A stretch of 64,000 nt of DNA from Escherichia coli. Its GTDB lineage: Bacteria; Pseudomonadota; Gammaproteobacteria; Enterobacterales; Enterobacteriaceae. Made by a program: the position numbers and the translations under genes. The stretch is from assembly GCF_003334405.1 (NCBI RefSeq), contig NZ_QOWM01000008.1; one strand, 5' to 3'. The first letter of the stretch is position 1. Each line of letters starts with the position of its first letter. Shown piece after piece: positions 10,404-43,198 of the stretch. Below the pieces are notes generated by a model that was not told where the DNA came from, did no database searches, and saw nothing but the letters and a program-made list of their open reading frames with translations.

Positions 10404-10435
10404 AGTCAAAAGCCTCCGACCGGAGGCTTTTGACT
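10404..10435. terminator. Bidirectional rho-independent terminator between convergent tonB and yciA
   Basis: 32-nt perfect palindrome agtcaaaagcctccgaccggaggcttttgact directly after tonB stop. Confidence 0.75.
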
Positions 10436-23334: not shown

Positions 23335-25230
23335 ATGGCAGGGAAGTTTCGCTGCATTTTGCTGTTGATAGCAGGGCTGTTTGTATCATCTCTAAGTTAT
23401 GCAGAAAACACGGAGATCCCTTCTTATGAAGAAGGGATCTCGCTCTTTGATGTTGAAGCCACTCTGCAACCAGATGGGGTGCTCGACATCAAAGAAAATA
23501 TTCATTTTCAGGCGCGAAATCAGCAGATTAAGCACGGCTTTTATCGTGATTTACCACGACTATGGATGCAGCCTGATGGGGACGCTGCACTGCTGAACTA
23601 TCATATTGTTGGCGTCACCCGTGATGGTATTCCTGAACCCTAGCATCTTGACTGGCATATCGGGTTAATGAGTATTGTCGTGGGCGATAAACAACGTTTC
23701 TTGCCTCAAGGCGACTATCATTATCAAATTCATTATCAGGTTAAAAATGCTTTCCTGCGTGAGGGGGATTCTGATCTGCTAATCTGGAACGTGACCGGTA
23801 ACCACTGGCCGTTTGAAATTTATAAGACCCGTTTTTCTCTCCAGTTCTCTAATATTGCGGGTAATCCATTTAGCGAAATCGATCTCTTTACCGGAGAAGA
23901 GGGCGACACATATCGTAATGGCCGCATCCTTGAGGACGGAAGAATTGAATCCCGCGATCCGTTTTATCGTGAAGATTTCACGGTCCTCTACCGCTGGCCT
24001 CACGCTTTACTTAGCAATGCCTCGGCTCCGCAAACGACGAATATTTTCAGCCATCTTCTTTTACCCTCCACGTCATCGTTGTTAATTTGGTTTCCGTGTC
24101 TGTTCCTGGTTTGTGGATGGTTATATCTCTGGAAGCGCAGGCCGCAATTTACGCCGGTAGATGTGATTGAAACCGATGTCATTCCGCCAGATTACACGCC
24201 CGGCATGTTACGTCTCGATGCGAAGCTAGTTTACGACGATAAAGGTTTTTGTGCCGATATCGTAAATCTGATTGTGAAAGGAAAAATTCATCTGGAAGAT
24301 CAGTCTGACAAGAACCAGCAAATCCTGATTCGTGTTAATGAAGGCGCGACCAGAAATAATGCGGTATTACTGCCCGCAGAGCAGTTATTACTGGAAGCGT
24401 TATTTCGTAAAGGCGATAAGGTCGTTCTTACGGGGAGACGCAACAGAGTCTTACGCAGGGCATTTTTACGGATGCAGAAATTTTATCTGCCGCGTAAAAA
24501 GTCTTCGTTTTACCGGTCTGATACTTTTTTGCAATGGGGTGGACTGGCAATATTGGCGGTCATTCTTTACGGTAACTTGAGTCCTGTAGGCTGGGCAGGA
24601 ATGAGTCTGGTGGGCGATATGTTTATTATGATCTGCTGGATTATTCCTTTTTTATTTTGTTCCCTTGAGCTTTTGTTTGCCCGCGATGATGACAAGCCTT
24701 GCGTTAATCGTGTAATCATCACTTTGTTTTTACCACTGATTTGTTCAGGCGTGGCCTTCTATTCTCTCTACATCAATGTCGGAGATGTATTCTTTTACTG
24801 GTATATGCCAGCGGGTTATTTTACCGCTGTTTGCCTGACCGGTTATCTCACTGGCATGGGGTATATTTTTCTGCCAAAGTTTACCCAAACTGGACAGCAA
24901 CGTTATGCCCACGGTGAAGCTATCGTTAACTATCTTGCGCGTAAAGAGGCAGCAACACACAGTGGACGTCGGCGGAAAGGGGAAACACGGAAACTGGATT
25001 ACGCGTTGCTAGGTTGGGCTATATCGGCAAATTTGGGGAGGGAATGGGCGTTACGCATTGCCCCTTCGCTTTCTTCGGCGATTCGCGCTCCAGAGATTGC
25101 CCGTAACGGCGTTTTATTCTCATTACAGACGCACCTAAGTTGCGGGGCCAATACCAGTTTGTTGGGGCGAAGTTATTCCGGTGGTGGTGCTGGCGGCGGC
25201 GCGGGTGGCGGAGGCGGTGGTGGCTGGTAA
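23335..25230 (+). pseudogene. yciQ: DUF2207 membrane protein YciQ interrupted by one in-frame TAG at 23641-23643
   Basis: Track ORFs 23335-23643 (102 aa) and 23668-25230 (520 aa) are in the same frame, separated only by the TAG plus 8 sense codons; 102+1+8+520 = 631 codons; signal peptide only in the N-fragment. Confidence 0.6.
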
Positions 25231-25357: not shown

Positions 25358-25388
25358 CAGTGAGTCAGATGTAAGTTCTGACTCACTG
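25358..25388. other. Perfect 12-bp-stem inverted repeat in the yciQ–rluB spacer
   Basis: cagtgagtcaga-tgtaagt-tctgactcactg; no T-run on either side. Confidence 0.7.
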
Positions 25389-41247: not shown

Positions 41248-41573
41248 TGAGTGATTCCAACAGCCGTCTGGTCTACTCAACGGAAACCGGACGTATTGAT
41301 GAGCCCAAAGCGGCCCCTGTACGCCCTAAAGGCGACGGTGTGGTGCGTATTCAGCGTCAGACCAGTGGACGTAAAGGTAAGGGCGTTTGCCTGATTACCG
41401 GTGTCGATCTCGATGATGCCGAACTGACAAAACTTGCAGCGGAACTGAAGAAAAAATGCGGCTGCGGCGGAGCAGTTAAAGATGGAGTTATTGAAATCCA
41501 GGGCGATAAGCGTGATTTATTAAAATCACTACTTGAAGCGAAAGGGATGAAGGTAAAACTCGCAGGCGGTTAA
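41244..41573 (+). CDS. yciH: SUI1/eIF1-family translation factor homolog YciH
   Basis: 108/109-aa ORF overlapping pyrF stop. Confidence 0.9.
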
Positions 41574-41578
41574 CATAA

Positions 41579-41606
41579 AAAGCCACGGATATATCCGTGG
41601 CTTTCG
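41579..41606. terminator. Bidirectional terminator between convergent yciH and osmB
   Basis: aagccacggata / tatccgtggctt perfect palindrome with flanking A and T runs. Confidence 0.6.
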
Positions 41607-41698
41607 AATATTTTACTGTGCGTATTATTCAGTTATTTCGTACTGAACAGAATCAAGCGTATTATAATTGCGAGTCGATAATCGACATTTATTTACGA

Positions 41699-41917
41699 TT
41701 ATTTACCGACCTGGTGACCAATAACACCACCGACAGCTGCACCACCTAATGTACCCAACGTACTGCCATCGGTCAGTACTGCACCGCCTAATGCCCCTGC
41801 ACCCGCGCCGATTGCGGTGTTGCGGTCCCGTTTAGACCAGTTAGAACAGGCACTCAGAGACATTGCCAAAGTAATTGCCAGAACAGCCGCGGTCATTTTT
41901 TTGCTCGTTACAAACAT
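41699..41917 (-). CDS. osmB: Osmotically inducible lipoprotein OsmB
   Basis: 72-aa ORF; lipobox LSAC, Gly-rich repeats. Confidence 0.93.
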   Translation of the reverse strand: MFVTSKKMTAAVLAITLAMSLSACSNWSKRDRNTAIGAGAGALGGAVLTDGSTLGTLGGAAVGGVIGHQVGK

Positions 41918-42139
41918 AATACTCTCTCCTGAATTTATGATTCACGGAAGTAAGCTCTCTATAACTATAATAGCTAAGAATAAGCTTGGTGAAATTATTC
42001 CGTGAAATCTGCTCGCGCGCAGGGTTATATCACGCAGGTGATAATGACTTCCTGTTATATCGCTGATAATAATTTTATATCTTGAGAGTGTTAATAACAG
42101 GTAAATAGTCTTAATTATCAACCAGGAATCATCTTAGAG

Positions 42140-42169
42140 CGGATGATTTGCCAAACTGCAAATCATCCG
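42140..42169. other. Perfect 12-bp-stem inverted repeat just downstream of yciT stop, far upstream of osmB
   Basis: cggatgatttgc-caaact-gcaaatcatccg. Confidence 0.7.
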
Positions 42170-42185
42170 TAGAGAAGGGAAATGG

Positions 42186-42935
42186 TTAAATGTCAACGAC
42201 GTGAACGGTGAGTTTACTGTGCTCAAGATGCATCAGATCGCTGGCGCGTATTTTCGAATCGGTAATCACGCGATTGAATCGCTCAACGGGACCGATGGAG
42301 TATGAATGTACAGCACCAAATTTCGAGCTGTCAGTCAGGACTATCGCTTCGCACTCTTTTTCCAGCACGGCATTGACCACATCGGTACGCATCATATCGC
42401 GACCGGTAAATCCAGTTTCAGGTTGCCAGCCATCAATACCAATAAATGCTTTGCTGAAATGCACCTGTTGGATGCACTGGCGTGTCAAAGGGCCAACCAT
42501 ACTTTCGCTTTTTTTCTGATACACGCCACCGAGCAAAATAACTTCACAAGGCGCGTCTTTCAGCAAATGCGCGATGTAGCTGCTGACCGTGATGATAGTG
42601 ACATTTTTCTTCTGCTCGCCCAGAGTCCGGGCGAGTAGGGCATTGCTGCTGCCATTTTCGATAAAGATGGTTTCGCCCGGTTGAACCAGCGACGCGGCAA
42701 ACTCGGCGAGTTCACGCTTCAGCGTATAGTTGCTCATCATACGGGTTTCGACGTCATCACTATCAAGCGAAACAGCAAAGCCATGTGCACGGCGGAGGTA
42801 ACTCAGTTTTTCGAGTGTGTTGAGATCCTGGCGAATGGTAACTTCAGAAACTCCAGTGGCTTTTGCCAGATCGGTTACGCTAACCTGACCCTGGTCAATG
42901 ACCATCTGTAGAATAGTTTGTTGTCGGGAATTCAT
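42186..42935 (-). CDS. yciT: DeoR-family transcriptional regulator YciT
   Basis: 249-aa ORF; N-terminal HTH. Confidence 0.92.
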
Positions 42936-43024
42936 CGCTGTAATTCTTATAACGTTATAATACTTAATAAAAAAATACTGACGCGCCGGGCATCCTCAAA
43001 TAGGAAAACCTGAAGGCACGATTG

Positions 43025-43198
43025 TTAAATCTCCCACGGTGCCTTCGGGATGTCTGGCGTAGATTCAGCAACCTGGCGCAAGAGTTCTGCTTTAAGTATC
43101 TCGAGATTATGGATCGCAGAGTGGTAATCGCCTGCCACAAGGATATCTAACACAATATCAATACGTTCGGCAACGCGCTGGGCATCAAATTCAGACAT
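43025..43198 (-). CDS. yciZ: Small protein YciZ (57 aa)
   Basis: ORF 43025-43207; second ATG (43196-43198) has AAGGA at good spacing. Confidence 0.75.

Follow-up and report, generated by a model that had tools for sequence, protein, structure and literature searches.

The closest described relatives of the element reported here are the Rho-dependent 3′ ends of Dar and Sorek (2018). These carry stable stem-loops without a U-tract or an upstream A-tract, and show a mild excess of C over G downstream. Transcription ends diffusely at some distance past such a stem-loop, which then acts as a barrier to PNPase and RNase II. A palindrome at the 3′ end of yciT in Escherichia coli resembles this class, as its stem-loop lies just upstream of a precise 3′ end, with few U, no A-tract and more C than G, and a bicyclomycin-sensitive region has been reported nearby. 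That said, the Rho signal at yciT has low resolution and the osmB promoters confound it, and membership of the class is putative.

Other systems invite comparison. As at a canonical intrinsic terminator, for example the one between yciH and osmB (41579-41604), the yciT hairpin follows soon after a stop codon and the 3′ ends lie 4-8 nucleotides past the stem. However, the yciT hairpin lacks a U-tract of 7-8 nucleotides and its stem is A/U-rich. REP and BIME palindromes can also stabilise upstream mRNA. Like them, the yciT palindrome is intergenic, sits at the 3′ end of a gene and can block exonucleases, but it is found in a single copy per genome, and we take its sequence to be unrelated to the REP consensus. 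Finally, the RcsB box of the osmB promoter osmBp1 (PMC7913699) lies only 3 nucleotides from the palindrome and the two have the heptamer GATGATT in common. The arms of the palindrome nevertheless misfit the 14-bp RcsB consensus, and the box is conserved family-wide whereas the palindrome is not.

We propose that the palindrome is the 3′-end-defining RNA stem-loop of the yciT mRNA, and give this reading a probability of roughly 85%. The element is most probably one more of the U-less 3′-terminal stem-loops that form a known class in E. coli mRNAs. The 3′ end as such is already known: it is tabulated in two publications, and has never been discussed individually. RefSeq has no feature annotated at the site, which can now be assigned as the yciT transcript end; the import of this beyond annotation is small.

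The palindrome and the mapped 3′ ends of yciT

The window, by which we mean the whole stretch of 64,000 nucleotides that was analysed (E. coli contig NZ_QOWM01000008.1), contains a chromosome segment with pyrF and yciH on the plus strand followed by osmB, yciT, yciZ and pdeR on the minus strand. The features of the yciT-osmB region are listed in Table 1. The region is present, with yciT and osmB annotated as such, in 5421 of 5426 complete E. coli genomes, in agreement with the gene names given in the initial annotation. Over 1.4 kb the window is 100% identical to strain Br_178_kylling. A few base differences from K-12 MG1655 around osmB-yciT (41976-41990 and 42195-42200), with aataagcttgg for aataagtctgg and gtgaacggt for gtgaatggt, show that the window does not come from MG1655 itself.

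Table 1. Features of the yciT-osmB region, in window coordinates.
Feature	Position	Strand	Description
yciT coding sequence (DeoR-family regulator)	42186..42935	-	ORF list and RefSeq annotation; transcript ends at the hairpin
Spacer between yciT stop and stem	42170..42185	-	16 nt, CCAUUUCCCUUCUCUA; pyrimidine-rich, no G
yciT 3′ stem-loop	42140..42169	-	5′ arm 42169-42158, loop 42157-42152 (AGUUUG), 3′ arm 42151-42140
Mapped steady-state yciT mRNA 3′ ends	42132..42136	-	Two published E. coli K-12 datasets
RcsB-box match TAAGAUGAUUCCUG (TAAGATGATTCCTG)	42123..42136	-	3 nt past the stem; upstream limit of the conserved osmB control DNA
osmB sigma-70 promoter TTAACA-17-TATTAT	42066..42094	-	Consensus scan, 10 of 12; start near 42059
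Bicyclomycin-sensitive (putative Rho) region, reported centre	41954 (NC_000913.3 1343365)	-	Adams et al. 2021, Supplementary file 2, 'orphan'

The initial annotation described a perfect 12-bp palindrome with a 6-nucleotide loop, starting 17 nucleotides past the yciT stop, about 220 nucleotides upstream of the osmB start and without a flanking U-run. Each of these points is borne out. The arms CGGATGATTTGC (42140-42151) and GCAAATCATCCG (42158-42169) are complementary at 12 of 12 positions. The palindrome begins at the 17th nucleotide past the stop codon (42188-42186), and position 42140 is 223 nucleotides from the osmB ATG at 41917. On the yciT-sense strand the sequence 3′ of the stem is CUCUAAGAUGAUUCC, with just two U among the first eight nucleotides, so there is no U-run. 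A 30-codon ORF with a TTG start (42134-42226, minus strand) overlaps the end of yciT and crosses the hairpin; it shows no sign of being a gene.

The predicted RNA hairpin is stable, with a free energy of -19.2 kcal/mol in the yciT sense and -20.5 kcal/mol on the plus strand. Relative to shuffled sequences the corresponding fold z-scores are -5.9 and -8.0. These values are reached with a stem in which only 5 of the 12 pairs are G-C.

Could such a palindrome be an accident, or a copy of a REP/BIME-like repeat with no specific role? The motif CGGATG within it is presumably reminiscent of REP sequences, which would speak for a repeat. On the other hand, the window has perfect 12-bp inverted repeats with loops of 3-10 nucleotides at four places, and since 100 dinucleotide-preserving shuffles yield 0.03 on average, the palindrome is not a product of chance. 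A repeat copy should have many relatives in the genome, whereas a sensitive search of 5423 E. coli genomes placed the palindrome at a median of one site per genome. In addition, its position is kept across the family and RNA ends map to it, both as described below. We give next to no credence to either version of this idea.

Besides the palindrome, the perfect inverted repeats of at least 12 bp in the window are found at 10404-10435, 23413-23441 and 25358-25388. The first (AGTCAAAAGCCTCCGACCGGAGGCTTTTGACT) resembles a bidirectional terminator, the second lies inside a 102-amino-acid ORF (23335-23643), and the third is located between two plus-strand ORFs and has no U-run.

Mapping the 3′ ends of the yciT mRNA was the experiment proposed in the initial annotation, and two independent published maps already provide it. 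Both place the dominant yciT RNA end at the hairpin. Window coordinates are obtained by subtracting 1301411 from the coordinates of NC_000913.3, a conversion that we verified on the MG1655 record; the palindrome, likewise checked on MG1655, corresponds to 1343551-1343580. The curated Term-seq list of Adams et al. 2021 (eLife, PMC7815308; Supplementary file 1) gives 1343547 on the minus strand as the "primary" yciT 3′ end, with the sequences ...CGGATGATTTGCAGTTTGGCAAATCATCCGCTCT and AAGATGATTC printed on its two sides. This is position 42136 of the window, 4 nucleotides past the stem. The entry is given in two conditions which, judging from row position, appear to be the LB OD 0.4 and M63 sheets; by the same token the end appears to be missing from the stationary-phase list. 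The second map is the TRS study (RNAtag-seq/term-seq; PMC10687069, Supplementary Data 2-4), which reports a 'Primary yciT' terminus in the region 1343541-1343551, with its peak at 1343543/1343544. The ends at 1343544 and 1343543 are positions 42133 and 42132 of the window, 7 and 8 nucleotides past the stem. The same hairpin was predicted there (-19.2), with a yciT 3′ UTR of 55 nucleotides. The SMRT-Cappable-seq and TERMITe supplements have no entries for yciT or osmB.

We also considered an antisense terminator acting on the plus strand, and rejected it. The plus strand has no U-run either, Adams et al. 2021 (PMC7815308) list no plus-strand 3′ ends at 13435xx-13436xx, and the wobble pairs seen among relatives (see below) pair on the minus strand only.

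Position and sequence of the hairpin among relatives

We scanned one genome per species and collected 80 loci from the Enterobacteriaceae that encode relatives of YciT with 74-100% identity. In 79 of these loci osmB lies 3′ of yciT on the same strand, with a spacer of 236-304 nucleotides (588 in one case). A hairpin of -9 kcal/mol or better (median -15.1) is found in 78 of the 79 syntenic loci, and in 76 of these 78 it begins no more than 20 nucleotides past the yciT stop. Structure is concentrated at this end of the spacer. The median fold of its first 50 nucleotides is -16.6 kcal/mol, compared with -4.9 to -7.3 for the next four 50-nucleotide windows.

The sequences that form these hairpins are not homologous across the family; rather, the stems make up several unrelated sequence families. 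The arms GATGATTTGC/GCAAATCATC are common to Escherichia, Citrobacter and Salmonella. In Enterobacter, Lelliottia and Leclercia the stem is GCGCCCG.../...CGGGCGC, in Kosakonia, Phytobacter and Cedecea it is (A)GCCCGC.../...GCGGGC(T), and Kluyvera, Trabulsiella, Atlantibacter and others have further unrelated stems. This makes for a clean comparative case, in which a 3′-end hairpin persists through turnover of its sequence, with a tail that remains poor in U and rich in C. The pattern lends support to the published view that at many E. coli genes the end is a protective stem-loop rather than a classical terminator.

Two of the records in the scan carry questionable labels. A 3.6-kb contig of a metagenome-assembled genome named 'Actinomycetes bacterium' (JAEWQO010000093.1, locus L002) encodes a YciT identical to that of the window, together with the E. 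coli hairpin region, and is probably a contamination or a misbinning. 'Citrobacter freundii M-21' (NZ_JAALBX010000013.1, locus L068) has an Atlantibacter-like hairpin and RcsB box, and its label is doubtful.

At closer range, we aligned 22 distinct sequences from Escherichia, Citrobacter and Salmonella. Standard pairs fill 91% of the cells of this alignment; when the pairing partner is slid by 1-3 columns the figure is 24-54%. Six stem pairs are invariant. The one-sided changes in the core take A-U to G·U in two sequences, U-A to U·G in three, G-C to G·U in one and C-G to U·G in six. A full compensatory change accounts for one U-A, and the pair formed by columns 26 and 55 alternates between A-U (nine sequences) and G-C (eight). 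The wobbles of the core are pairs in the yciT sense alone; read from the opposite strand they become A·C mismatches. In all, roughly five independent events preserve pairing and one breaks it (locus L004), and because the numbers are this small the covariation is suggestive rather than significant; a shuffle control came out at 1 of 500, a value inflated by the relatedness of the sequences.

Of 5424 E. coli records, 4481 share an identical 61-nucleotide region, and the sampled variants alter the loop or the flank and leave the stem unchanged. The stem sequence is highly conserved over Escherichia, Citrobacter and Salmonella as a whole, more so than a purely structural role would call for. Yet the stem GCCACGG of the yciH/osmB terminator is likewise kept in several Citrobacter loci, so the conservation of the yciT stem is not exceptional, although the osmB 3′ region serves as a rough control only, because its terminator lies about 95 nucleotides from the osmB stop.

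Intrinsic termination, Rho and a putative protective stem-loop

Does the hairpin terminate transcription by itself? A self-sufficient, non-canonical intrinsic terminator would release the transcript 7-8 nucleotides downstream without Rho, despite its poor U-tract. The stability of the stem is in keeping with this, the ends mapped at +7 and +8 lie at the canonical release distance, and a few relatives have a real T-run after the hairpin, with 6 T in 8 nucleotides in a Leclercia locus (L040) and in Enterobacter Cy-643 (L069). Ends at +4 to +8 could also be produced by stalling of exonucleases. Against such a terminator, the tail CUCUAAGA, with its two U in eight, falls short of the U-tract of a canonical intrinsic terminator, and the stem is poor in G-C pairs. 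A simple terminator consensus scan called the yciH/osmB terminator 540 nucleotides away and did not call the hairpin. A rough score of the d'Aubenton-Carafa type, for comparative use only, gave -42 for the hairpin and +27 for the osmB terminator.

The relatives tell the same story. Across the 78 loci with a hairpin, the 8-nucleotide tail consists of 37% C, 35% T and 10% G, against a background of 22%, 30% and 19%, respectively. The number of T per tail, 2.8 with 2.4 expected, is not really enriched, and tails with at least five T are found in only 6 of 79 species. The eight nucleotides before the stem, at 38% C, 39% T and 7% G, contain no A-tract. Because these tails are U-poor, C-rich and G-poor, we infer that self-sufficient intrinsic termination is improbable, and we rate it as a doubtful explanation. 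A U-less protective stem-loop on a Rho-terminated transcript fits better: the yciT hairpin combines a precise 3′ end right after a stable stem-loop with the absence of a U-tract and an A-tract, as is typical of the class of Dar and Sorek.

A role for Rho is also consistent with published data, at coarse resolution. Around the bicyclomycin-sensitive position 1343365, Adams et al. 2021 (PMC7815308) counted 101 3′ ends upstream and 25 downstream in untreated cells, and 259 and 233 with bicyclomycin, for a Rho score of 3.63 (p 9.7e-9). This signal could come from Rho acting in the yciT-osmB spacer or the osmB leader; it may instead reflect induction of osmB by bicyclomycin and not read-through from yciT. 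Since the score uses 800-nucleotide windows, with a resolution of about +/-800 nucleotides, and the reported centre lies at the predicted start of the osmB promoter osmBp2, some 37 nucleotides upstream of the osmB ATG, the signal is compatible with Rho termination of yciT and not decisive. A further point against Rho is that in E. coli itself the downstream spacer has just a slight excess of C over G.

In the mechanism that we favour, the palindrome would form the final structured part of the yciT transcript, with a 3′ UTR of about 50-55 nucleotides, and the folded 12-bp stem-loop would set the steady-state 3′ end. Polymerases that pass the hairpin would most likely meet Rho and be released in the yciT-osmB spacer, which is untranslated and AT-rich and in which H-NS binding is on record too, and the extra tail would then be cut back to the stem by the 3′-to-5′ exonucleases PNPase and RNase II. 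The stem may also shield the yciT mRNA from decay. As a by-product, transcription of yciT would be kept apart from the osmB promoter region that begins 3 nucleotides downstream. On how the end arises within this explanation we lean somewhat towards Rho with trimming. Weak intrinsic termination at the hairpin, possibly assisted by a factor, is a tentative second choice, and the rest falls to a mixture of the two. The suggestion of a non-canonical yciT terminator in the initial annotation accordingly holds in substance. RNA does end 4 and 7-8 nucleotides past the stem, and the stem-loop is kept in the Enterobacteriaceae; it is the hairpin as an autonomous terminator that fares less well.

The strong 3′-end signal at the hairpin might alternatively mark the terminator end of a stable small RNA derived from the 3′ UTR, or a docking site for ProQ or Hfq. 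U-less 3′ hairpins are typical ProQ ligands. We know of no internal 5′ end that would belong to a small RNA from the yciT 3′ UTR. The TRS comparison of 3′-UTR with coding-sequence coverage (PMC10687069) has 38 outliers and yciT is not among them, a scan of 41550-43100 with the Rfam 15 covariance models (E <= 1) returned no matches, and a literature search for yciT together with ProQ found nothing relevant. Both forms of this proposal seem to us far-fetched.

The osmB control region beside the hairpin

The initial annotation raised a second option, namely that the palindrome is a binding site in the osmB upstream region. To weigh this we need to know what else lies there. The RcsB-box match, at 42136-42123, fits TN(G/A)GAN4TC(T/C)NA except for its last base, which is G in place of A, and its first base coincides with the yciT 3′ end mapped by Term-seq (42136). 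A box is found in 73 of 79 related loci, 2-41 nucleotides 3′ of the hairpin. The osmBp1 promoter reportedly requires an RcsB-box-like sequence upstream of its -35 element. EMSA showed phosphorylated RcsB binding to the osmB box of Salmonella (TAAGACTTTTCTGA, at -73 to -59 relative to the start site; PMC7913699).

The best sigma-70-like match on the minus strand has its hexamers TTAACA at 42094-42089 and TATTAT at 42071-42066. It is probably osmBp1, and the same hexamers are given for osmB in an RpoD genomic SELEX study (PMC3946193), where H-NS is placed in this spacer. If transcription starts near 42059, the centre of the RcsB box falls at around -70, and the palindrome occupies about -81 to -110. 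The sequence TTCACC-18-TATAGT at 41993-41964 resembles a second promoter and is in keeping with both osmBp2, which depends on sigma-S, and an RpoS SELEX peak near 42003.

When 73 loci are aligned by anchoring on the RcsB-box match 3′ of the hairpin, the mean frequency of the top base is 0.46 in the 45 nucleotides upstream of the box, 0.81 in the box and 0.67-0.78 over the 110 nucleotides that follow it. Structure is thus conserved without sequence at the hairpin, and sequence is conserved from 3 nucleotides further on, which points to an RNA 3′-end element beside a DNA control region. The palindrome is outside every known or conserved osmB element, and the RcsB box can be taken as the limit of the osmB regulatory DNA on its upstream side.

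Several observations could nevertheless be read as marks of a DNA operator, at which a dimeric factor (YciT, RcsB or another) would regulate osmB. The palindrome has perfect dyad symmetry, the arms GATGATTTGC/GCAAATCATC and their 6-nucleotide spacing are (nearly) invariant in the 22 Escherichia, Citrobacter and Salmonella sequences, the RcsB box adjoins it and repeats GATGATT, and osmB rises 3.6-fold (log2 1.83, padj 0.011) in a yciT deletion in the RNA-seq data of Gao et al. 2021. The rise could be due to repression, to an indirect effect or to an artefact of the deletion construct. In the ChIP-exo data of the same study, which cover YciT (49 sites) and other tested factors, no site has osmB or yciT as its nearest gene. 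Furthermore, unrelated hairpins take the place of the palindrome in other genera, where the box and the promoter blocks (0.81 and 0.78, against 0.46 at the hairpin) are conserved. The one-sided substitutions disrupt the DNA dyad and preserve the RNA pairing. For RcsB in particular, the arms hold only the half-motifs GGA...TCC, 20 nucleotides apart, which departs from the consensus and its spacing, and the position of about -81 to -110 from osmBp1 lies beyond the RcsB box. The half-site GGATGATTTGC, allowing one mismatch, has 4 matches in the window with 1.9 expected, which is no enrichment. We regard an operator as very improbable. The unrelated stem families, the conserved osmB DNA and the G·U wobbles in the yciT sense together argue that the hairpin is an RNA element and not an osmB operator, and the binding-site option of the initial annotation is set aside accordingly.

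A narrower version of that option, an RcsB site inside the palindrome itself, had been suggested to us by the shared GATGATT. It was discarded, given that the palindrome fits neither the RcsB consensus nor its spacing and that it is not conserved across genera in the way the box is.

Since it has no U-tract and adjoins the RcsB box, the hairpin could act as a conditional Rho-dependent gate, through which yciT polymerases would read into osmB under Rho limitation or during activity of the sigma-S-dependent yciT promoter. The rise of osmB in the yciT deletion and the bicyclomycin-sensitive signal in the spacer are both compatible with such a gate, and neither is proof of it. If true, osmB would receive a third input that does not depend on its own promoters, and RcsB or H-NS bound downstream might modulate the gate. 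We think a gate unlikely, and prefer to read the palindrome as the stem-loop that defines the 3′ end of yciT.

In the osmB upstream region, long blocks within 42035-42117 (minus strand) are conserved across Enterobacteriaceae genera, namely AATTAAGACTTTTTACCTGT (E. coli copy 42116-42097) and GTAAAATTAAT.TTAGCGATATAACAGGAAGTGACTATCACCTGCGTGAT. These blocks exceed what the RcsB box and the promoter hexamers need, and further factors may bind them. They include two GATATAAC repeats, 30 nucleotides apart, at 42024-42031 and 42054-42061 on the plus strand.
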